DNA of 64,000 nt from Chitinophagales bacterium (lineage in GTDB: Bacteria > Bacteroidota > Bacteroidia > Chitinophagales > JAHQVX01): positions 2,606,256-2,670,255 of the forward strand of contig OZ244113.1 in assembly GCA_965215685.1 (NCBI GenBank). Direction: 5' to 3'. Made by a program: the position numbers and the translations under genes. The stretch's first letter is position 1. Each line of letters opens with the position of its first letter. Below, piece by piece: positions 4,439 through 33,887 of this stretch. The notes below the pieces were generated by a model. That model was not told the DNA's origin, ran no database searches, and was given only the letters and a program-made list of their open reading frames with translations.

Positions 4439-4864
4439 TTATAGTTTAAGTCCTTGATTTAAAATTCTTTCGGCTGATTCGTTTATGGTTTCATTCTCCA
4501 ATAAATGTACAAGCCCATCTTTATATCTAATTACTTCGTGATGAAGCGTGCAGGGATTGTTTGAGCTACATTCGGGTAAACCGAGTACACATTGGCCAAA
4601 TATATCCGGCCCGTCAATACACTCTATTACTTCCAGCAAGCTGTTCTTTGTGTTACTTTCATTTAAAAAGAAACCACCGCTTGGCCCCTTTGAAGAAGAA
4701 ATGATCCTGTTACGCGAAAGTTGCTGCAATAGTTTAGCTAAAAAGTGCTTTGGTACGCTCAACTCTTCTGCAATGTCCTTTACCCCCAATTTGGTTTCTT
4801 CATTGGAATGTACGGCCAGGTATAATACGGCTCTTATGGCGTATCTACACGATTTGCTGAACAT
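4439..4864 (-). CDS. Rrf2 family transcriptional regulator (NsrR/IscR-like, Fe-S type)
   Basis: N-terminal wHTH (SCRYAIRAVLYLA). Three-Cys cluster (GQCVLGLPECSSNNPC) typical of Fe-S Rrf2 sensors. Divergent from nosZ. Confidence 0.8.
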   Translation of the reverse strand: MFSKSCRYAIRAVLYLAVHSNEETKLGVKDIAEELSVPKHFLAKLLQQLSRNRIISSSKGPSGGFFLNESNTKNSLLEVIECIDGPDIFGQCVLGLPECSSNNPCTLHHEVIRYKDGLVHLLENETINESAERILNQGLKL

Positions 4865-10772: not shown

Positions 10773-11501
10773 ATGATCCGATTTCAAAACATACATAAGA
10801 AGTTTGGTAAAAACCATGTGCTTAAAGGCATTGACCTACAGTTCGCTGGGGGAGGAATAACTGCTATCCTGGGTCCCAACGGATCAGGTAAAACCACTTT
10901 AATCAAATGTTTACTGGGTTTGGTCATCCCCGATAGTGGAGATATACAGTTCAACAGCCACTCAATTAAAGGTCAATTCAACTACCGAAACCAGCTTTCA
11001 CATCTTCCGCAAATAGCTCGTTTTCCCGAAAACCTTACCGTTTCCGAAGTCATTAAAATGATTAGGGACTTACGTCCGGGGGAAACAAATGAAACTCACT
11101 TTATTCAACTTTTTAATCTGGATGAACACCTAAAGAAAAAGATGCGGAACCTGTCCGGAGGTACCAGACAAAAAGTGAATATTTTATTGGCTTTAATGTA
11201 TGATAGTCCGGTTATAATCTTAGATGAACCCAGCACTGGCCTTGATCCGCTGGCACTCATTAACCTTAAAGAACACCTTGCACAGGAAAAAGCAAAAGGC
11301 AAGCTCATTCTTATTACAACCCATAGTATGAACTTTGTGCAGGAAATGGCAGATAACATTGTGTTTCTGTTGGAAGGAGAGATCTATTTCAACGGAACGA
11401 AAGAACAACTGTTGGATGAACAAGGAGCGAATAAGGTGGAAGAGGCCATTGCCAATATTTTCAGGAAAGAAGGTGTAGAGCAACACAAACCAGTAAATTG
11501 A
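10773..11501 (+). CDS. nosF: NosF ABC transporter ATP-binding protein
   Basis: Walker A GPNGSGKTT. ABC signature LSGGTRQK. Walker B ILDEP. Confidence 0.85.
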   Translation: MIRFQNIHKKFGKNHVLKGIDLQFAGGGITAILGPNGSGKTTLIKCLLGLVIPDSGDIQFNSHSIKGQFNYRNQLSHLPQIARFPENLTVSEVIKMIRDLRPGETNETHFIQLFNLDEHLKKKMRNLSGGTRQKVNILLALMYDSPVIILDEPSTGLDPLALINLKEHLAQEKAKGKLILITTHSMNFVQEMADNIVFLLEGEIYFNGTKEQLLDEQGANKVEEAIANIFRKEGVEQHKPVN

Positions 11502-11671
11502 AGGGGATGAAAGATTTATTAACCGCAATGTACACAATGTTACCCGCGGTGTTTCGCAATGTTCATCGTGACCATTGTGCTATACTTTGTGCAACATTGT
11601 GGTTATCACTCGGCATGCTCAGGAGAGTTTCACAGAGTATTTTTTAAGGGAAAAGAAAGGCCCTAAAGAGA

Positions 11672-12454
11672 ATGTTTAAAATCTTCAAATACAGTTTTCA
11701 GGACATGGTGCGCAACCGGTGGATGTTCATTTATCTTGGCTTTTACCTGTTGCTCACTTTAGGGCTATTGTTTCTGAGCCATGATGTGACCAAGGTTATT
11801 GTAAGCCTTACCAATATCATTCTCATTCTAACGCCGCTCATTGGAATCCTGTTTGGAGCCATGTATTACTACAACTCGCGTGAGTTTATAGAATTGTTAT
11901 TGGCACAACCATTGTCGCGTACGTCCATTTTTACCGGCTTGTACATGGGTTTGGTATCTTCTTTATCGCTTAGCCTTTTACTTGGGGTGGGTTTACCGAT
12001 GATCTTGTTCGGGATATTCTCATCACCCATGCTAAATACCTTTCTTATTCTGCTGGCCATGGGTGTTGTACTCACCATCATTTTCTCTGGCATTGCCTTT
12101 TTAATTGCCGTTAGGCATGAAAACAAGATAAGGGGACTGGGCATTGTTATATTTACCTGGCTTTTCTTTGCAATTATTTATGATGGCATAGTTCTATTGC
12201 TGCTTTTATTTCTTAAGGATTACCCTCTTGAGAAACTCAGCGTTGGACTCACATCATTCAACCCGATTGACCTGTCAAGAATTCTAATTTTGTTAAAGTT
12301 AGATGTTTCGGCTATGATGGGCTATACCGGTGCTGTTTTTCAAAAATTCTTTGGTAGCGGCACGGGGTCTCTAATTGTGATAGGCATCCTACTTCTATGG
12401 ATGGTGCTGCCGTTTTTGTGGATGCTGAGGCTGGCTAAGAAAAGAGATTTTTAA
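11672..12454 (+). CDS. nosY: NosY ABC-2 type permease
   Basis: 260 aa with six TM segments. Directly follows nosF. Confidence 0.8.
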   Translation: MFKIFKYSFQDMVRNRWMFIYLGFYLLLTLGLLFLSHDVTKVIVSLTNIILILTPLIGILFGAMYYYNSREFIELLLAQPLSRTSIFTGLYMGLVSSLSLSLLLGVGLPMILFGIFSSPMLNTFLILLAMGVVLTIIFSGIAFLIAVRHENKIRGLGIVIFTWLFFAIIYDGIVLLLLLFLKDYPLEKLSVGLTSFNPIDLSRILILLKLDVSAMMGYTGAVFQKFFGSGTGSLIVIGILLLWMVLPFLWMLRLAKKRDF

Positions 12455-12530
12455 TTGTCGTAATTAAGAGTTTCTTAATTTCATCCGTATCCAAAACATT
12501 TTGCAATGCCCGGCCTTCTTCTAATACATG

Positions 12531-12914
12531 AACTAATTCTTTATTCACTCTTTCTGTAATACCTTTTTTGGACTTATTTTTGACATCATTGCCCATAAGC
12601 AATTTAGGTATAAGATATTGTAACGATGTAGGAATTCCCGCGTATCATTTGCATCTTTCATAACCGAATTTTATTTTAAATTAAAAAAATTATGATGACA
12701 ATTAAATATTATTTACTGCTAATGTTTACATGTATTTATGCAGGTTCGCTGGCACAAAATGTGGAGTTTGTGGAGTATGACCTGGACAATGGATTACATG
12801 TAATTCTACACCAGGATAACAGCAACCCAATAGTAGCGGTTTCTGTACTTTATCATGTGGGTTCTAAAAACGAAAACCCTAATAGAACAGGATTTGCGCA
12901 CTTTTTTGAACATT
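12531..12914. repeat. Direct repeat copy 1 (384 bp), upstream flank of the IS1634-family element. It equals the promoter plus first 74 codons of the M16 peptidase gene.
   Basis: Base-for-base identical to 14567..14950 as read from the sequence. It abuts the IS left inverted repeat. Confidence 0.85.
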
Positions 12915-12919
12915 CCTGA
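12692..12919 (+). pseudogene. Truncated duplicate of the M16 peptidase 5' end (first 74 codons, then reads into the IS)
   Basis: The 75-aa ORF is identical to the N-terminus of the 14728..16062 ORF until the IS boundary. Confidence 0.8.
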
Positions 12920-14566
12920 CTTCATCAAATTTTATATTTGGACACTTCTGTTTTTCATAATCAATTGATTTACATTTAATTGTATTTTTTTAATTTCTTA
13001 AATTGGGTGTTAATTGATGTTTTGTAGCTTCATATAGTGTTTGTTAGAAAGCTGAAACATCCAAACGGCAGGACCTATATTCAGGTCATTGAAAAGAAAG
13101 CGGGTAAATTTCTTGTCAAAAAGAGTTTTGGTTCAGCCATATCGGCTACTGATATGGAAAAATTAGTCAAAAAAGCCGAAGGTTGGATTGAAAACACCAC
13201 AGGTTCACTTGAGTTTGATTTTGACAATGAGTCTGCTATTTATCAAAACCTGCTCAATAATATTACCTCTCACAAGCTTGTGGGTATTGATCTTGTTTTG
13301 GGCAAAATATTTGACCAAATAGGGTTTAATAAGATTGAAGACAATCTTTTTCGCCATCTTGTATTGTACAGATTGGTTTATCCAAAAAGTAAATTAAAAA
13401 CCACAGAATATCTGTACCGTTATGAACAAAAGCAATATAGCGAAAACGATATTTATCGCTACATGGATAAGTTGTATGCTACACAGAAAGAGTTGGCTCA
13501 AGATATCAGCTACCGGCACACACTAAAAGTATTGAATGGTAAAATTAGTGTGGTGTTTTATGATGTAACTACTATATACTTTGAGATAGACAAAGATGAT
13601 GAATTGCGAAAAACCGGTTTTTCCAAAGATGGCAAGCATCAAAACCCCCAAATTGTATTGGGTTTGTTGGTTAGCCGGGATGGATACCCGTTGGCTTATG
13701 AAATATTTGAAGGTAATAAGTTTGAAGGACATACCATGCTACCTGTCATTGAATCTTTTAGAAAAAAATACAAGCTTGCTAAACTCATTATAGTGGCAGA
13801 CTCCGGCTTGCTGTCAAAACAAAACATGGAAGATCTTCAATCAAATGGCTATGAGTTTATACTTGGCGCAAGAATAAAAAATGAAAGCAAGCCAATAAAA
13901 GAACAGATAGAAAAACTAAAACTTAAAAATGGAGAAAGTGCTGTTATAGACAAAGATGGCTTACGGCTTATTATTACCTATTCCAACAAAAGAGCCATTA
14001 AAGATGAGTACAATCGAAAAAAGGGGATTAAAAGACTTGAAAAACAGCTTAAAACCGGTCGACTTACTAAAGCCCATATCAACAAAAGAGGCTACAATAA
14101 ATTTTTAAAAATGCAAGGAGGTATTTCTATATCCATAGACCGACAAAAGGTGAAGCAAGATATAAGATGGGATGGTTTGAAAGGCTACATCACTAATGCT
14201 CAATTAAACACCGATGAGTTAATGGATAATTACCAGCAACTATGGCAAATAGAAAAAGCCTTTAGGATAGCAAAAACGGAGTTAAAAATACGCCCTGTAT
14301 TCCATTACAAGCAACGTAGAGTAGAAGCACATATATGCCTAAATTTTGTGGCCTACAAGGTCTATAAAGAATTAGAACGTCAACTGAAAGAAAAACAAAC
14401 TAATATGAGTGCTTCAAAAGCCATTGAAATTGCGCAAAACATATATCAAATTGAAGTAACCACGCCTAAAACAAAAAAGAAACTTAAAAAAATACTACTA
14501 TTTACAAGTGAGCAAAGGCAATTAGCCCAATTGTTTGATTTTGGGTGTTAATTTGCGGAAGTCAGG
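12915..14566 (+). mobile_element. IS1634/IS4-family insertion sequence (about 1.65 kb)
   Basis: Imperfect terminal inverted repeats: left CCTGACTTCATCAAATT, right reverse-complement CCTGACTTCCGCAAATT. Single 504-aa transposase. Flanked by a 384-bp target-site duplication. Confidence 0.75.
13037..14551 (+). CDS. IS4/IS1634-family DDE transposase
   Basis: 504 aa. N-terminal region typical of IS1634-like transposases. C-terminal DDE-type core with K/R-rich tail. Confidence 0.7.
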   Translation: MFVRKLKHPNGRTYIQVIEKKAGKFLVKKSFGSAISATDMEKLVKKAEGWIENTTGSLEFDFDNESAIYQNLLNNITSHKLVGIDLVLGKIFDQIGFNKIEDNLFRHLVLYRLVYPKSKLKTTEYLYRYEQKQYSENDIYRYMDKLYATQKELAQDISYRHTLKVLNGKISVVFYDVTTIYFEIDKDDELRKTGFSKDGKHQNPQIVLGLLVSRDGYPLAYEIFEGNKFEGHTMLPVIESFRKKYKLAKLIIVADSGLLSKQNMEDLQSNGYEFILGARIKNESKPIKEQIEKLKLKNGESAVIDKDGLRLIITYSNKRAIKDEYNRKKGIKRLEKQLKTGRLTKAHINKRGYNKFLKMQGGISISIDRQKVKQDIRWDGLKGYITNAQLNTDELMDNYQQLWQIEKAFRIAKTELKIRPVFHYKQRRVEAHICLNFVAYKVYKELERQLKEKQTNMSASKAIEIAQNIYQIEVTTPKTKKKLKKILLFTSEQRQLAQLFDFGC

Positions 14567-14950
14567 AACTAATTCTTTATTCACTCTTTCTGTAATACCT
14601 TTTTTGGACTTATTTTTGACATCATTGCCCATAAGCAATTTAGGTATAAGATATTGTAACGATGTAGGAATTCCCGCGTATCATTTGCATCTTTCATAAC
14701 CGAATTTTATTTTAAATTAAAAAAATTATGATGACAATTAAATATTATTTACTGCTAATGTTTACATGTATTTATGCAGGTTCGCTGGCACAAAATGTGG
14801 AGTTTGTGGAGTATGACCTGGACAATGGATTACATGTAATTCTACACCAGGATAACAGCAACCCAATAGTAGCGGTTTCTGTACTTTATCATGTGGGTTC
14901 TAAAAACGAAAACCCTAATAGAACAGGATTTGCGCACTTTTTTGAACATT
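14567..14950. repeat. Direct repeat copy 2 (384 bp), downstream flank of the IS. It carries the promoter and 5' end of the intact peptidase gene.
   Basis: Identical to 12531..12914. Confidence 0.85.
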
Positions 14951-16062
14951 TGTTGTTTGAAGGATCCAAAAATATTGAGAGAGGAGAATTTGATAAGTAC
15001 ATTTCGGAGGCCGGCGGAATGAACAATGCCAACACAACCAACGACCGTACCTATTATTACGAACTTTTACCATCCAATCAATTAGCACTTGGCCTGTGGC
15101 TTGAAAGTGAGCGTATGTTACACGCCAAAGTAGAGAATAAAGGAATTGAAACACAGCGAGAAGTGGTTAAAGAAGAAAAACGAATGAGAGTTGACAATCA
15201 GGCATATATGAATGCCATTTGGAGCGAAGTCCCGGCAGAGCTTTTTAAAAATCATCCCTATCGCTGGTCGGTTATTGGTTCAATGGAACATTTGAATGCT
15301 GCACAAGAAGCTGATTATAAAGATTTTTATGCTACGTTTTACGTACCTAACAATGCCACCCTGTCTATTGCCGGTGATTTAGACATTGAAGAAGCTAAAG
15401 CCTTGATTGAGAAGTATTTTGGAGATATACCAAGAGGAACCAATCCAATTCCAAGACCAAATGTAAAAGAGGCTCCGATTACCCAAGAAATACAAAAGAA
15501 TTTTTACGATAAAAATGCACAGATACCCGCTGTGGTATTTGCATATCGTACACCGAAACAAACCGATAAAGACAGCTATGTACTTAATATAATTTCAAGC
15601 ATATTAAGTGGTGGTGAAAGCTCCCGAATGCAAAAGAAAATTGTTAATGAAAAACAATTGGCCATGGCAAACTTTGCTTTTTTAAACGCTATGGAAGATT
15701 ACGGCATGTTTCTCGTTATTGCCCTTACAAATCAAGGAGTAGGACCTGATGAACTTGCAACTGCAATGGATGAAGAAATCAACAATTTATTGAAAAACGG
15801 AATTACCGACAGAGAGCTGCAAAAACAAATTAATCAGTTAGAAAAAGCGTATATAGAAAGTAACCGGTCTATGGCTGGTATTGCTGAGTCATTAGCCAAT
15901 TACCACGTTTATTACGGAAATGCCAATTTGATAAATGAAGAGCTTAAAACCTACAGATCAATTACGAAAGAAGATGTGCTAAGGGTGGCCAATGAATATT
16001 TAAAACCCAACCAAAGAGTACGCGGGTTGATTTTGCCGGCAGACAAAGAAGTATCTAACTAA
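14728..16062 (+). CDS. M16 family zinc peptidase (pitrilysin/insulinase-like, catalytic subunit)
   Basis: Signal peptide. Inverted zincin motif HFFEH followed by downstream Glu. 444 aa. Confidence 0.85.
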   Translation: MMTIKYYLLLMFTCIYAGSLAQNVEFVEYDLDNGLHVILHQDNSNPIVAVSVLYHVGSKNENPNRTGFAHFFEHLLFEGSKNIERGEFDKYISEAGGMNNANTTNDRTYYYELLPSNQLALGLWLESERMLHAKVENKGIETQREVVKEEKRMRVDNQAYMNAIWSEVPAELFKNHPYRWSVIGSMEHLNAAQEADYKDFYATFYVPNNATLSIAGDLDIEEAKALIEKYFGDIPRGTNPIPRPNVKEAPITQEIQKNFYDKNAQIPAVVFAYRTPKQTDKDSYVLNIISSILSGGESSRMQKKIVNEKQLAMANFAFLNAMEDYGMFLVIALTNQGVGPDELATAMDEEINNLLKNGITDRELQKQINQLEKAYIESNRSMAGIAESLANYHVYYGNANLINEELKTYRSITKEDVLRVANEYLKPNQRVRGLILPADKEVSN

Positions 16063-16076
16063 TTAAACTTGAAAAC

Positions 16077-18182
16077 ATGTTACACATGAAAAATATTAAA
16101 TTTTATTTGGTATTAATTACAATCTTTTTTGCAGGTTGTTCTCCAAAACAAATAACAAAAACTACTGAAGTAGATTTTAGATCACAGGCTCCTGCACCCG
16201 GTCCGGCTCCTGTAATTCAGTTAAAAAAACCAGCATCATTTATACTTAATAATGGTTTAAAAGTTTTGGTAGTAGAGAACCATAAACTTCCTACGGTAGA
16301 TATGGACCTGTTTTTAGACTATCCCCAACTTGTTGAAAAAGACAAAGCTGGTATGTTGGAATTCTTTGGGCCAATGATGAAAGCCGGAACCAAAAACTTT
16401 ACGAAAGAAGCTCTTGACGAAGAACTGGACTTTCATGGCATACAGTTAGGCTTTGGTGCCCGTGGCTTAAATGTTAGCACCTTAAAGAAAAAGTTGCCAA
16501 AAGCTATGGAATTAATGAGCGAAGTGCTTTTTAATCCAACTTTTAATAATGAAACTGAGTTGAATAAATTTAAAAAGCAGGCCATTACGGGATTAAGCCA
16601 CTTATCCAAAGATTCTGACGGAATAATGGGTCAGGTTAAGAACGCGGTAATGTACGGTAAAGATCATCCTTGGGGAGAATATGCTACAGAAGATAGTTAC
16701 AAGGCCATTTCATTAAGCGATTTTTCAAAACATTATAATACCTATTTCAAGCCTAACGTTGGCTACTTAACTATTGTAGGAGATATAACACTAGACGAGG
16801 CCAGATCACTGGCCAACAAACACTTTTCAAACTGGAAAAAAGGGAATATAGCTTCAATCCAATATAATGAACCGAAAAACCTTAGTAAAACAGAAATAGT
16901 TGTGGTGGATCTGCCAACGGCAACCCAATCCAATATTTCTATCTCTAATTTACAAGATCTGAAAAAGGCAAATAAAGATTATTTCGGAACGGTTTTGGGC
17001 AATCACATTTTAGGCGGAAGCAGTTTTTCAAGGTTATTTAAAAATCTGAGAGAAGATAAAGGTTATACATATGGTGCTTATTCATCGCTAAGTAATCATC
17101 ATAAAATGCCATCTACATTCAGTGCATCGTTAAAAGTAAGAAATGAAGTAACGGACAGCGCAGTTGTAGAAGTTATGAAAGAGCTAAAACGTATTACTGC
17201 TTCTTTACCCTCGGATGAGTTGGAAACGGCCAAAAAAGAACGGACCGGCCGGTTTGCCCTGGGGCTGGAAGATCCGGCTACCATTGCCCGATATGCCCGA
17301 ACTATCCTACGAGAGAATTTAGATGATGATTTTTATTCCAATTATCTCAAGAGTTTAAATGGCCTTTCTACTAATGATGTAATGGCTGCCATGGATAATT
17401 ATGTAAAGCCCGATAACGCGCGCATTTTTATAGTAGGAAAAGCCACTGAAATTGTTCCCGGTCTTAAAAAATTGGGCTACCCCATACGCTTTTACGATAT
17501 GTGGGCTAACGAAGTAGCTGACCCCACAATTAAAGCAGACTTAGGAGAGGTAACTGCTGAAAGCGTGGTCAATAAGTATTTGAAAGCTATTGGGGGAAGA
17601 GAGAAGCTGGAAAGCATAGGTTCAATGATTCAGGAAATAGATTTGGAGATTCCGGGATTACCCGGGCCGGCAAGCGGAGTGATTAAAATAAAAACGCCTG
17701 ATAAGATGACCATGACTATGAGTGCCGAGGGCATAGGACAACTTATGAGAATGGTATTTAACAAAGACAAAGGCTTTATGGAACAAATGGGGCAAAAAGT
17801 GGATATGGGCCAGGCCGAATTAGTGCATTATCTCAATAGGAATTTATTTGTCGAAGAGCTGGATTTAGATCCGGCCAACATGAAATTAGACAATAAGATT
17901 ACTGAAAACAACAGAGAGTATTATAAAATTATTGTAACCGAAGAGAACGGTACCAATGAGAGGTTCTATGATGCAGAAACAGGTTTGTTGGCTAAAGTGA
18001 TATCTGTTTATAATATCGGCGAGCAACAGGATGTTACCTCATTTATGTATAAAGACTATACCGATTTTGATGGTATTTTGTTGCCAAAATCTCAGGTTAC
18101 AAGTTCTATGGGACAGGAATTTGGTTCAACAATAACAAAAGTGACCTTTAACTCGGGTGTGGAGGATGCAGATTTTGAATAG
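16077..18182 (+). CDS. M16 family peptidase-like lipoprotein (non-catalytic partner subunit)
   Basis: Lipobox FFAGCS. M16 fold without HxxEH. 701 aa. Directly follows the catalytic M16 gene. Confidence 0.75.
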   Translation: MLHMKNIKFYLVLITIFFAGCSPKQITKTTEVDFRSQAPAPGPAPVIQLKKPASFILNNGLKVLVVENHKLPTVDMDLFLDYPQLVEKDKAGMLEFFGPMMKAGTKNFTKEALDEELDFHGIQLGFGARGLNVSTLKKKLPKAMELMSEVLFNPTFNNETELNKFKKQAITGLSHLSKDSDGIMGQVKNAVMYGKDHPWGEYATEDSYKAISLSDFSKHYNTYFKPNVGYLTIVGDITLDEARSLANKHFSNWKKGNIASIQYNEPKNLSKTEIVVVDLPTATQSNISISNLQDLKKANKDYFGTVLGNHILGGSSFSRLFKNLREDKGYTYGAYSSLSNHHKMPSTFSASLKVRNEVTDSAVVEVMKELKRITASLPSDELETAKKERTGRFALGLEDPATIARYARTILRENLDDDFYSNYLKSLNGLSTNDVMAAMDNYVKPDNARIFIVGKATEIVPGLKKLGYPIRFYDMWANEVADPTIKADLGEVTAESVVNKYLKAIGGREKLESIGSMIQEIDLEIPGLPGPASGVIKIKTPDKMTMTMSAEGIGQLMRMVFNKDKGFMEQMGQKVDMGQAELVHYLNRNLFVEELDLDPANMKLDNKITENNREYYKIIVTEENGTNERFYDAETGLLAKVISVYNIGEQQDVTSFMYKDYTDFDGILLPKSQVTSSMGQEFGSTITKVTFNSGVEDADFE

Positions 18183-18288: not shown

Positions 18289-19824
18289 TCATTTTTTGGG
18301 CACCCGACAATTTTTTGGATGATTTGATATAGTTCTCCCCTTAATGTTCAGTTGTCTAATAAACTCAACCGTTTCCATCATATCATAGTGTAATGTTCTG
18401 TCCTCTTCTACTTTAGGAACGGCGGCTCTATATTGCTTGCGAAGTTGTTCAATGGTTGGAGAACTTTTCTTTTTCCGGAAGTCCAATCCCTGCATAGCGG
18501 TCATGAGTTCTATGGCAAGAACCCGCTCTACATTTTCAAGTACGCGCAGACATTTAGTAGCAGCGTTAGCACCCATGCTCACATGGTCTTCCTGTCCGTT
18601 GCAACTCACAATATTATCAATGCTGCTTGGTGTACAGTACTGTTTGTTCTGACTAACTATGGAGCCTGCCACATACTGCGGGATCATAAAACCACTATTC
18701 AAGCCCGGATTCGCAACCAAAAATGCCGGCAGTCCGCGCTGACCCTCCAACAACTTGTATATACGTTTTTCACTAATGCTTGCAATTTCAGCCATGCTCA
18801 TGGCCAAATAGTCCAAGGGCAATGCCAGGGGCTGTCCGTGAAAGTTGCCGCCGGAGATAATATCACCTTCGTCGGGGAAGATGTTAGGGTTATCGGTTAC
18901 GGCATTTATCTCTGTTAATATCACATCAGCTACATAATTAACGCAATCTGTGGAGGCACCGTGTACTTGAGGAATACAGCGGAAAGAGTAGGGATCCTGA
19001 ATGTGAGCCTTCTCCTGAGCCATTATTTCGCTGTCGGCAAGTATATCACGAATTTGGGCAGAGCACTGCTTTTGGCCACTGTGTCTGCGAATTTCATGCA
19101 ATCGCGGGTCAAACGGATCTAACCGGCCATCAAAGGCATCAATAGAACAAGCGGCTATAAGGTTAGCCGTGTTCAGTAACTTCTTAGCCAGGAGTACACA
19201 GTAGGCACCGTATGCACTCATAAACTGCGTGCCGTTTAAAAGTGCCAAACCTTCCTTACTTCTAAGTTTTAAGGGCATTATTCCGGCTATATCTAAAATG
19301 GTTTCGGCCTTAAACTTTTGGCCGTTGCTCCATACATCGCCTTTACCAATAATGGGTAAGGATAAGTGTGCCAAAGGTGCCAGATCGCCCGATGCACCCA
19401 GCGAGCCCAATTCATAAACCACCGGATATATCTCTTTGTTATGAAACTCCAGTAATCGCTCAACGGTTTCTATGGCTACACCTGAATACCCTTTTGATAA
19501 ACCCAATGCCTTAAAAATGAGCATTAATCTGATAATGTCGGTGGGTACTTCGGCACCCATACCGCAGGCATGGCTCATTACAAGGTTTTCCTGCAGTTTA
19601 GACAACTCGGCATTGGGAATTTTAACATTGTACAATGCCCCAAAGCCTGTGTTGATGCCATAATATGCCTGCTCCGATGCATCTAATTGCTCATCGAGGA
19701 AAACCCGGCATTTCTGAATTTTTTTGGCTGCGCTTGCACTTAATTCCAGATGGGGCTTTTCATAATTAAGTGTTTTTATATCCTGCCAGGTCAGGTCTTT
19801 ATCACCAAGTTTGAACGATTTCAT
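18289..19824 (-). CDS. hutH: Histidine/aromatic amino-acid ammonia-lyase (MIO-dependent)
   Basis: GASGDLAPLAHL motif with the Ala-Ser-Gly triad that forms MIO. 511 aa. Confidence 0.8.
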   Translation of the reverse strand: MKSFKLGDKDLTWQDIKTLNYEKPHLELSASAAKKIQKCRVFLDEQLDASEQAYYGINTGFGALYNVKIPNAELSKLQENLVMSHACGMGAEVPTDIIRLMLIFKALGLSKGYSGVAIETVERLLEFHNKEIYPVVYELGSLGASGDLAPLAHLSLPIIGKGDVWSNGQKFKAETILDIAGIMPLKLRSKEGLALLNGTQFMSAYGAYCVLLAKKLLNTANLIAACSIDAFDGRLDPFDPRLHEIRRHSGQKQCSAQIRDILADSEIMAQEKAHIQDPYSFRCIPQVHGASTDCVNYVADVILTEINAVTDNPNIFPDEGDIISGGNFHGQPLALPLDYLAMSMAEIASISEKRIYKLLEGQRGLPAFLVANPGLNSGFMIPQYVAGSIVSQNKQYCTPSSIDNIVSCNGQEDHVSMGANAATKCLRVLENVERVLAIELMTAMQGLDFRKKKSSPTIEQLRKQYRAAVPKVEEDRTLHYDMMETVEFIRQLNIKGRTISNHPKNCRVPKK

Positions 19825-33039: not shown

Positions 33040-33300
33040 CCTACATCTTCAATGTAGTGCTCTACCAACTGAGCTATTCCGATTCGTGGTCGGAAACGGG
33101 AATCGAACCCGCGCATCAGGGGCTATTGTTCTATCCACTGAACTATCCCGAAATAATATCGGGAGCAGGAGTCGAACCTGCGACCTATAGCATGGCGACA
33201 AAACCAATCAACTACAAACGGCATATAACATTCCATAGGAGCTACACCGCCGTGTTATACAGAAACACAAGCTGTAAGTTTGCTTGTATCATGTATTTTG
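33040..33300 (-). pseudogene. Cluster of degenerate tRNA-like fragments
   Basis: Reading the minus strand, the region contains in order:
- a tRNA-Phe(GAA) 5' half (acceptor, D arm, anticodon arm) lacking a T arm;
- a 65-nt tRNA-like unit with D arm, T arm and acceptor but a truncated anticodon arm;
- a T-arm plus 3'-acceptor fragment GCAGGTTCGACTCCTGCTCCCGATA;
- a 13-nt tRNA 5' start GGCGGTGTAGCTC. Confidence 0.55.
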
Positions 33301-33528
33301 TCAGACCCTTATTCCATTTGGAATAAGAGATTTTTTTGTATCAGAGTGATACTATTTTCAATATGTAAAGAACTTTCAAGTCGTCACGATGAGTTTAACG
33401 AACCATGAGACTGGAATTTGATCAGACCTATCCTTCGTCAGGCCAGGATGACGTCTGATCATAATAGCCATCCCGAACACCGTTGTTTACAACGGCTCGT
33501 CCCAAATGTTCGGGATGGCCTGGACTAG

Positions 33529-33612
33529 TGGGAGAGATTGGATTCGAACCAATTCAGCACGAAAGCACCGGATTTACAGTCCGGCACGGCTCTCCAACTC
33601 CGTCGCACTCCC
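33529..33612 (-). tRNA. tRNA-Tyr (anticodon GTA), long variable arm
   Basis: Manual fold. Acceptor GGGAGTG/CTCTCCC (one mismatch). D stem ACGG/CCGT. Anticodon stem CCGGA/TCCGG with loop CTGTAAA. Variable hairpin GTGCTTTCGTGC. T arm ATTGG-TTCGAAT-CCAAT. Confidence 0.75.
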
Positions 33613-33656
33613 AATTGTTGGTCAGGCAGGCCTTGAACCTGCTACCTCCAGAGTTG

Positions 33657-33728
33657 AAGCCGAAACAGGATTTGAACCTGTACCACCGAGTTCAAAACCC
33701 GGTATCCTTGCCATTGGACCATTCGGCT
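33657..33728 (-). tRNA. tRNA-Gln (anticodon TTG)
   Basis: Acceptor AGCCGAA/TTCGGCT. D arm GTCC-AATGGCAA-GGAT. Anticodon stem CCGGG/CTCGG with loop TTTTGAA. T arm ACAGG-TTCAAAT-CCTGT. Confidence 0.8.
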
Positions 33729-33734
33729 TAGAAG

Positions 33735-33808
33735 CGGTGACGGACGGACTTGAACCGACAATCCACTCGCAGACAACGAGGTACATTCACCAAATATGCT
33801 GCGCCACC
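33735..33808 (-). tRNA. tRNA-Asp-like (anticodon GTC), slightly non-canonical
   Basis: Acceptor GGTGGCG/CGTCACC (one GU). Anticodon loop TTGTCTG (position 37 is T). T stem with one T-T mismatch. Six-nt spacing to neighbours like the other array members. Confidence 0.55.
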
Positions 33809-33814
33809 ATCATG

Positions 33815-33887
33815 TATCAGGTACGGGGCTCGAACCCGTGTCTTCGCTGTGAAAGAGCGAGATCCTGGCCAACTAGACGAACCTGAC
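33815..33887 (-). tRNA. tRNA-Glu (anticodon TTC)
   Basis: GTCAGGT-TC-GTCTAGTTGGCCAGGA D arm closely resembling bacterial tRNA-Glu. Anticodon stem TCGCT/AGCGA with loop CTTTCAC. T arm ACGGG-TTCGAGC-CCCGT. Acceptor 3' strand ACCTGAT. Confidence 0.85.

Follow-up and report, generated by a model that had tools for sequence, protein, structure and literature searches.

How does a gene stay complete when an insertion sequence (IS) has entered its 5' region, and what made the two long, identical repeats that bracket that IS? The question is raised by a locus in a 64,000-nt stretch of DNA from a Chitinophagales bacterium (GCA_965215685.1, contig OZ244113.1, 2,606,256-2,670,255, forward strand; this whole stretch is called the window below), where an IS lies at the start of an M16 peptidase gene (Table 1). 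We favor, with a probability of about 0.87, a single insertion of an IS1634-family element into the 5' region of the peptidase gene that gave rise to a 384-bp target duplication. Read in this way, the insertion neatly illustrates that a gene can be hit and yet remain intact when the target duplication is very long.

Alignment of the two flanks of the IS gave an exact direct repeat of 385 bp with 0 mismatches (12530..12914 and 14566..14950). Its first G is ambiguous, as it can be assigned either to the right end of the IS or to the repeat, and the 384-bp reading used in Table 1 is as valid as the 385-bp one. Beyond the repeat, identity over the adjoining 50 bp on each side is only 26% and 42%. 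The IS termini, CCTGACTTCatCAAATT and CCTGACTTCcgCAAATT, match at 15/17 positions, and their terminal CCTG..TTC core is kept in 24 aligned relatives. An earlier note on this DNA had described identical 384-bp segments around a 1652-bp element with imperfect inverted repeats of about 17 bp and one 504-aa transposase; the alignment and the single long ORF bear out that description. Internal to the termini, two copies of a subterminal motif lie in direct orientation to each other, and the left and right copies co-vary across relatives.

Table 1. Features of the IS insertion and the neighboring peptidase genes (window coordinates)
Feature	Coordinates	Strand	Basis or remark
Left copy of the 384-bp target duplication (385 bp with G12530)	12531..12914	+	Exact match to 14567..14950
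Candidate Bacteroidetes-type -7 promoter element TATTTTTG	14611..14618, twin 12575..12582	+	Weak evidence; motif not enriched over shuffles
Remnant ORF, 75 aa	12692..12919	+	Signal-peptide-like N-terminus through HFFEH zinc motif
IS1634-family insertion sequence, 1652 bp	12915..14566	+	Bounded by the repeat and inverted termini
Left terminal inverted repeat CCTGACTTCATCAAATT	12915..12931	+	Terminus comparison
Subterminal motif TTGGGTGTTAATT, left copy	13003..13015	+	In 5' untranslated region of transposase gene
Transposase, 504 aa, GTG start	13037..14551	+	Sole long ORF of the element; NF033559, Pfam DDE_Tnp_1
Subterminal motif TTGGGTGTTAATT, right copy	14541..14553	+	Overlaps last transposase codons (FGC, stop)
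Right terminal inverted repeat AATTTGCGGAAGTCAGG	14550..14566	+	Overlaps final two bases of transposase stop codon
Right copy of the 384-bp target duplication, running on into the rest of the peptidase gene	14567..14950	+	Exact match to left copy
Intact M16 (pitrilysin/insulinase-type) peptidase gene, 444 aa	14728..16062	+	Pfam Peptidase_M16 and M16_C
Partner M16-family gene, 701 aa (context)	16077..18182	+	Pair syntenic in orthologous loci

The transposase matches the NCBIfam model NF033559, "IS1634 family transposase", with 379.4 bits (cutoff 100) over residues 36-502 and profile positions 17-481 of 483, a wide margin for the family named in the earlier note; the score against Pfam PF01609 (DDE_Tnp_1) is 53 bits. 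The DDE triad (D176/D255/E406) is intact and invariant in a 29-sequence alignment, with a spacer of 151 aa between the second D and the E. The YREK-type motif reads Y399-x2-L402-x3-E406-x6-K413, the R being replaced by L402; the family variant is Y-x2-R-x3-E-x6-K, with the R usually absent (PMC2266710). The 1652-bp length and single ORF fall within the family range (1500-2000 bp, one ORF), the element end CCTGACTT starts with C, carries TT at positions 7-8 and fits the family pattern C-----YT, and close homologs of the transposase carry the NCBI name 'IS1634 family transposase'. The element shares the DDE_Tnp_1 domain and a weak IS4 NCBIfam hit with IS4-family elements (IS10, IS50, IS231), but these have a complete YREK motif and fixed duplications of 8-13 bp (PMC2266710). 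We rejected membership in the IS4 family sensu stricto, as the score on NF033592, 35.3 bits, stays below the cutoff of 115 and the R of YREK is absent. The element at 12915..14566 is an ordinary new IS1634-family member of an already known kind and is apparently active.

Its repeats, at 384/385 bp, depart from the family norm, which according to De Palmenaer et al. 2008 (PMC2266710) is an AT-rich target duplication of 5-6 bp. ISGka5, a family member from Geobacillus kaustophilus, made a 6-bp repeat in observed experimental transposition (PMC8024623). The window element resembles ISGka5 and typical members in family, size class (1.5-2 kb) and DDE transposase, and differs from them in repeat length, as do most of the relatives surveyed below (16-573 bp). 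As atypical members the 2008 review names only IS1634 and IS1549, with repeats of 8-514 bp between them (PMC2266710). IS1634 of Mycoplasma mycoides subsp. mycoides SC (Vilei et al. 1999, as described in PMC2266710) is like the window element in belonging to NF033559, with a large DDE transposase that lacks the R of YREK, and in having short imperfect inverted termini that start with C and long variable repeats; by the same description it differs in host (Mollicutes rather than Bacteroidota) and in copy number (~60 in strain PG1, one in the window). The family founder, IS1549 of Mycobacterium smegmatis (Plikaytis et al. 1998, likewise by its description in PMC2266710), also has long direct repeats, although its host is a high-GC actinobacterium.

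A single-protein scan of genome contigs found no relatives; an alignment-based scan found them. About 34 independent insertions of related elements have flanking repeats, of 16-573 bp, and the surveyed relatives share 54-70% amino acid identity in the transposase and similar CCTG..TTC termini. In 21 relatives the repeats measure 16, 30, 60, 70, 75, 88, 89, 90, 109, 115, 127, 132, 136, 144, 155, 183, 215, 216, 229, 356 and 572 bp; another (L022) has a repeat of ~230 bp, and 12 further related elements have repeats of 39-321 bp. Where at least 900 bp of flank was available on both sides, a repeat is present in 21/26 relative loci, the five without one being L003, L024, L033, L039 and the chimeric L005. 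Length varies between insertions of the same or a closely related element, as in the IS1634/IS1549 subgroup: the repeats measure 70, 216 and 115 bp at the three sites of one identical transposase (P0064), 88 and 127 bp at the two Aquimarina copies, and 229, 60 and 109 bp at the three from Marinifilum. In the repeat lengths (n=22), no helical period from 9.5 to 12 bp reached significance once multiple testing was allowed for. Near L010, L033, L035, L036 and L041, additional 9-mers resembling the IS ends were dropped, since their rate equals the chance expectation with one mismatch.

Long repeats predominate in the surveyed, mostly Bacteroidota, clade of relatives. The earlier note had called long variable duplications the hallmark of the IS1634 group; this describes the relatives found here, in which long repeats are usual, and overstates the case for the family as a whole (PMC2266710, PMC8024623). 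Such duplications had previously been reported for two IS1634-family elements only; they now extend to ~34 independent insertions in a widespread clade, with a clear bias at the junctions.

This bias was measured at 20 insertions with ends defined by motif. The last duplicated base, next to the IS end, is T in 36/40 junctions (p about 9e-15), and the next base is a pyrimidine in 38/40. The transferred strand in relatives reads ...GAAGTCAGG^A(G/A)AA at both junctions (the caret marks the junction), and the duplicated segment accordingly has the form 5'-AR....YT-3'. The window junctions, …ACATT^CCTGAC and GTCAGG^AACTAA, fit this pattern. In most relatives no more than 1 nt separates the repeats from the motif-defined ends; L004, L059, L066 and L091 have junctions that depend on blast extension or show an offset or ambiguity of 3-6 nt. 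Two junction cases, one of 5 nt (L066) and one of 11/15 (L091), are unexplained. Microhomology-driven joining was set aside because the one-base junction ambiguity is at chance level.

We also searched for the site as it was before insertion. No same-species empty site was found in the collections searched: clustering at 90% identity left the peptidase a singleton, a metagenome scan with a 38-mer across the downstream repeat boundary hit one contig only, that of a distant ortholog (77% over 203 bp), and there were no exact-protein matches to the window's transposase and peptidase or to P0001 and P0016, which lie on the same 3.2-Mb contig. For this reason the target duplication is deduced from the structure and the relatives rather than seen directly. 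Orthologous loci at 73-77% identity contain the first 74 codons a single time and lack a transposase. This single-copy state, with the exact repeat, the long repeats of relatives and the junction bias, supports the target duplication and gene preservation that the earlier note had proposed.

Other histories could leave the same arrangement. Two IS copies could have inserted 384 bp from each other on sister chromosomes and then recombined by homology; this, or a comparable unequal exchange mediated by the IS, would yield an identical order of repeat, IS and repeat, and the chimeric flanks of L005 (left from L001, right from L002) hint at exchange between copies or at assembly joins among relatives. 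This route is nevertheless improbable, since it requires two close insertions and an exchange at each of the ~34 independent loci. Moreover, no short duplication is nested at the junctions, and 12915..14566 is the only IS copy in the 64-kb window, with no further copies or solo ends at 0 mismatches. The symmetric motif at both repeat boundaries is instead to be expected of a single event involving two strand transfers.

An IS is also the type of repeated sequence around which an assembler could misplace the same 385 bp on both sides, and many relatives are found alone on ~1.65-kb contigs, so assemblers do break at these elements. Here, however, the source is a single 3.2-Mb contig, and the same architecture recurs across independent projects and assemblers, including long-read and finished chromosomes (for example, that of Aquimarina sp. 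ERC-38, CP098511). The repeat lengths, at 16-573 bp, track no k-mer size, and the boundaries match the IS termini within a few bases and carry a biological junction motif, which makes an artefact highly improbable. Least probable of all is a pre-existing 384-bp tandem duplication with later insertion of the IS exactly at its junction. This would accommodate the family norm of 5-6 bp, as the IS itself would have made no or only a very short duplication, but the IS would have had to hit the new joint exactly and duplicate no further bases, both here and in dozens of relatives, and the orthologous loci are single-copy.

For the preferred reading, a single insertion with a 384-bp target duplication, we infer the strand-transfer chemistry, its polarity and the repair step as follows. 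The IS ends would each have been joined to one strand of the target, the two points of joining being 384 bp apart with a 5' stagger. One of these would lie in the intergenic DNA 161 bp upstream of the peptidase ATG and the other within codon 75, where the HFFEH zinc motif is encoded. Repair synthesis by the host, with strand displacement, would then have copied the intervening segment on both sides, leaving the 384-bp direct repeat. Each IS end apparently picks its own target site, which suggests that the spacing between the two strand transfers is not fixed, unlike in short-repeat IS families. The perfect identity of the repeats, from which a recent insertion had been concluded, is consistent with recency but does not require it, as gene conversion could also keep the copies identical.

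Up to the 2008 review, no mechanistic model for long duplications had been put forward (PMC2266710). We tentatively suggest, at somewhat less than even odds, that in this large, mostly Bacteroidota clade the ends integrate as two uncoupled transfers, each at its own short A-run (5'-N^A(G/A)AA on the transferred strand), ~16 to ~570 bp apart. If so, a long variable duplication would be what normally happens and not a peculiarity of two elements, the subterminal GGGTGT motifs, which co-vary and are direct instead of inverted, would point to an asymmetric transposition complex, and the origin of very long target duplications would become directly testable with an abundant natural data set. The junction motif, the long-repeat clade and the co-varying subterminal sites all bear on this unsolved mechanism, and the insertions of the relatives offer a starting data set and predictions for a DDE transposase making staggered cuts hundreds of bases apart.

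The effect on the peptidase gene follows from the position of the duplicated segment, which spans 161 bp of upstream intergenic DNA and peptidase codons 1-74. Because the segment begins upstream and reaches into the coding region, its right copy restores the gene in full, together with 161 bp of native upstream sequence. As had been proposed, this copy is continuous with a 444-aa ORF in which both M16 domains are present; orthologs are of like length (442-445 aa, 73-76% identity). The same note had placed the peptidase promoter and ribosome-binding site, along with the first 74 codons, in each repeat. The codons are there; promoter scans turned up nothing more than consensus matches, with no sigma-70-like hit on the + strand upstream of the peptidase, and no Shine-Dalgarno-like sequence precedes its ATG. 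The -7-like motif TATTTTTG is not enriched in the window (58 found, 81 expected by shuffles). It is plausible that promoter and ribosome-binding site are carried in the 161 bp of the repeat upstream of the ATG, and the right copy would presumably retain promoter activity. A minus-strand ORF of 55 aa (12435..12602) matches no protein family and was taken to be spurious.

For annotation it matters that insertions of this type leave exact duplicates of gene fragments together with duplicated upstream regions, which can be mistaken for assembly errors or pseudogenes. Here the fragment is the 75-aa remnant ORF already reported in the earlier note, made up of 74 peptidase codons and a Ser, with its TGA contributed by the left end of the IS. 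This left stub and the transposase gene point the same way, and the stub reads on into the IS.

An exact direct repeat of 385 bp (12530..12914 and 14566..14950, no mismatch, found by extending the match by script around an offset of 2036) brackets the IS element, and across the 50 bp outside it identity is only 26% and 42%. The leading G can be assigned either to the right IS terminus or to the repeat, and the 384-bp reading (12531..12914 and 14567..14950) is equally valid. The earlier note had described two identical 384-bp segments around a 1652-bp element with imperfect terminal inverted repeats of about 17 bp and a single 504-aa transposase, and the alignment and ORF search agree on each count. 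The transposase GTG lies 122 bp from the left IS end, and its stop codon ends 15 bp before the right one.

Features of the insertion locus (window positions)
Feature	Position	Size	Remarks
Stub ORF	12692..12919	75 aa	From the left repeat
IS element	12915..14566	1652 bp	Segment between the repeat copies
IS ends			CCTGACTTCatCAAATT left; CCTGACTTCcgCAAATT right (reverse-complemented); 15/17 positions agree
Left motif copy	13003..13015		In transposase 5' leader; ~80-90 nt inside left end in relatives
Transposase ORF	13037..14551	504 aa	GTG start; sole long ORF in element
Right motif copy	14541..14553		13-25 nt inside right end
M16 peptidase ORF	14728..16062	444 aa	Continuous with right repeat; Peptidase_M16 and Peptidase_M16_C
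M16-type partner	16077..18182	701 aa	Next after peptidase ORF

The proposed membership of the IS1634 family is upheld by several features of the transposase. It scores 379.4 bits against the NCBIfam model NF033559 "IS1634 family transposase" (cutoff 100), covering nearly the whole profile, while its scores against the IS4, IS1182 and IS701 models all lie far under their cutoffs. It contains the Pfam domain DDE_Tnp_1, and residues D176, D255, E406 and K413 occupy invariant columns in an alignment of 29 homologs. The surroundings of the catalytic glutamate (Y399-x2-L-x3-E406-x6-K413) lack the arginine of the IS4-type YREK signature, an absence that De Palmenaer et al. 2008 (PMC2266710) give as typical for IS1634-family members. 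The family table in the same paper agrees with the element's size and with its ends, which have C at position 1 and TT at positions 7-8. The nearest database proteins are 65-71% identical, almost all of 504 aa, and some are named "IS1634 family transposase" by NCBI (Aquimarina, a Flavobacteriales MAG). The identical protein occurs in one record, on a 3,205,684-bp contig that also carries, outside the window, a second family member (69% identical).

Upstream of the repeat lies an ABC-2-type permease ORF, whose stop codon is 76 bp away; 161 bp separate the start of the repeat from the peptidase ATG. The stub ORF comprises peptidase codons 1-74, with the HFFEH zinc motif exactly at their end, and then Ser and a TGA from the IS terminus. 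Of the two insertion boundaries, one is thus intergenic and the other within codon 75. The duplicated segment begins in upstream DNA and runs on into the coding region, and for this reason the downstream copy restores the gene to full length, leaving the short upstream remnant and intact peptidase that had been described from the sequence. Orthologs of 442-445 aa (73-76% identity) are found in Saprospiraceae- and Flavobacteriales-like MAGs. At the orthologous loci L092-L094 the synteny of the M16 pair is kept and the upstream neighbours differ: an ABC ATPase and ABC-2-like permease in the window (region compared, 10773..12454), PTR2/MFS transporters in the orthologs. On the 3' side the orthologs have a same-strand AMP-binding ligase and the window a minus-strand ORF (18289..19824).

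The repeat had also been said to carry the peptidase promoter and ribosome-binding site along with 74 codons; the codons are there, and the two signals were not recovered. A sigma-70 scan of the 161 bp gave no plus-strand site, and no Shine-Dalgarno-like sequence precedes the peptidase ATG, where the bases are all A/T; absence of such a sequence is usual in Bacteroidota. Within the 161 bp a single plus-strand signal turned up, the Bacteroidetes-type -7-like octamer TATTTTTG (12575 and 14611), a pattern that shuffled sequence contains at least as often as the window does (81 expected, 58 found). It is reasonable to infer that the 161 bp hold the native promoter, since the upstream intergenic space at orthologous peptidase loci is just 22-105 bp.

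No same-species empty site was found: clustered at 90% identity among ~15 billion proteins, the peptidase stands alone, and a 38-mer spanning the downstream boundary matched only a distant ortholog in a metagenome collection (77% over 203 bp). At the orthologous loci L092-L094 and L095, the 74-codon N-terminal segment is present once, with no transposase. We collected IS relatives with their flanks from ten places that encode one and the same transposase (P0064), from the finished Aquimarina sp. ERC-38 chromosome (two copies), and from 80 GTDB species-representative loci, most sharing the termini CCTGACTTC...GAAGTCAGG or near variants, and asked at each locus whether the sequence up to the left terminus equals that beginning past the right terminus. 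Flanking repeats of 16, 30, 60, 70, 75, 88, 89, 90, 109, 115, 127, 132, 136, 144, 155, 183, 215, 216, 229, 356 and 572 bp were found, plus one of ~230 bp with an internal indel (L022), and twelve more distant elements have repeats of 39-321 bp; the window's 384 bp falls within this range. Among the 26 loci flanked on either side by 900 bp or more, 21 have a repeat. Copies of one element differ in the length of their repeats: P0064 has 70, 216 and 115 bp, the Aquimarina copies 88 and 127 bp, and those in a single Marinifilum chromosome 229, 60 and 109 bp. Most repeats among the closer relatives adjoin the motif-defined ends within 1 nt; L004 is off by 1 and 3 nt, with an unmatched AGA that separates its repeat from the right IS end. 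Among the twelve more distant elements, L059, L066 and L091 have ambiguous junctions, since the boundary given by blast runs 3-6 nt or more into the IS terminus.

These variable repeats, together with the single-copy orthologous loci, support the claim that the 384-bp repeat is a target duplication. Were it an assembly artefact, long repeats would not be expected to recur, as they do, in independent assemblies; the same recurrence argues against two nearby insertions followed by recombination, which would be needed at every locus. The observation is confirmed and its interpretation as a long target duplication supported, with qualifications on the promoter and ribosome-binding site and on the term "hallmark". 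As a hallmark of the IS1634 group, long variable duplications fit the surveyed clade; the term is too strong for the whole family, because the norm is 5-6 bp (PMC2266710) and ISGka5 transposition, as observed, gave a 6-bp duplication (PMC8024623). The window element, at 384/385 bp, agrees with all family criteria tested save this "normal" length. Long repeats are already established for IS1634 of Mycoplasma mycoides and IS1549 of Mycobacterium smegmatis, at 8-514 bp (PMC2266710).

No mechanistic model for the IS1634 and IS1549 repeats had been proposed as of De Palmenaer et al. 2008 (PMC2266710), and our literature search found no later one; the survey of relatives is a usable data set for this open question. 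Among the 20 cleanest targets, which we reconstructed (40 junctions), the last duplicated base beside the IS end is T in 36 junctions (background T/A ~31%; binomial p ~9e-15), the preceding base is a pyrimidine in 38, and the two bases further from the IS are mostly T. The transferred strand reads ...GAAGTCAGG|A(G/A)AA at both ends, so the duplicated segment has the form 5'-AR....YT-3'; the window junctions conform (GTCAGG|AACTAA right, ...ACATT|CCTGAC left). The T-run and A-run are still found at junctions of loci with no detectable repeat, and no helical period stands out convincingly from the repeat lengths. From the symmetry of the junction bias and the breadth of the length range, it appears that each IS end picks its own A-run site, with a spacing unfixed by the complex. 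In standard DDE chemistry the 3'-OH transposon ends each attack a target strand, leaving a 5' stagger; here the two attacks would fall 384 bp apart, and strand-displacement synthesis from the free target 3' ends would then run through the segment, yielding two duplex copies.

Apart from the termini, every aligned relative (24) contains two copies of a motif, TTTGGGTGT(TAA or CCC), in direct rather than inverted orientation. The copy at the left end co-varies with that at the right (TTAA/TTAA, TCCC/TCCC, and GGGTGACCC/GGGTGACCC in two separate lineages), and this paired change across elements points to a sequence-specific site, putatively an operator or a place where the transposase binds. At 12933..12940, just within the left IS end and ~100 nt 5' of the GTG, the Bacteroidetes-type -7-like octamer TATATTTG is a candidate transposase promoter by consensus match. 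Read-through transcription into the transposase is also possible, since the truncated peptidase copy is oriented like the transposase gene and runs into the IS.

Hundreds of relatives are assembled as lone contigs about one element long (1.63-1.75 kb), which shows a multi-copy clade that is widespread among environmental Bacteroidota; at least 575 confirmed matches occur across GTDB species-representative genomes. On contig L005 one and the same IS has the L001 insertion's left flank on one side and the right flank of L002 on the other, a product either of recombination among copies of the IS within that population or of chimeric metagenome assembly. Unusually long similarity between IS terminus and target is seen in a few relatives (L066, L091, L059), one-base ambiguities elsewhere being at chance level: in L066 (2889..2893) the terminus resembles the target just outside the duplicated segment over 5 nt (CCTGT), and in L091 (2751..2765 and 4530..4544) 11 of 15 nt are alike. 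Elsewhere in the window, ARAGORN predicts three tRNA genes (Tyr, Gln, Glu) in a minus-strand cluster at 33088..33887. The Rfam tRNA model additionally matches 33735..33808 (41 bits), resembling tRNA-Asp(GUC) with several mismatched pairs, and 33088..33152 (33 bits), a 65-nt tRNA-like piece without an anticodon arm.
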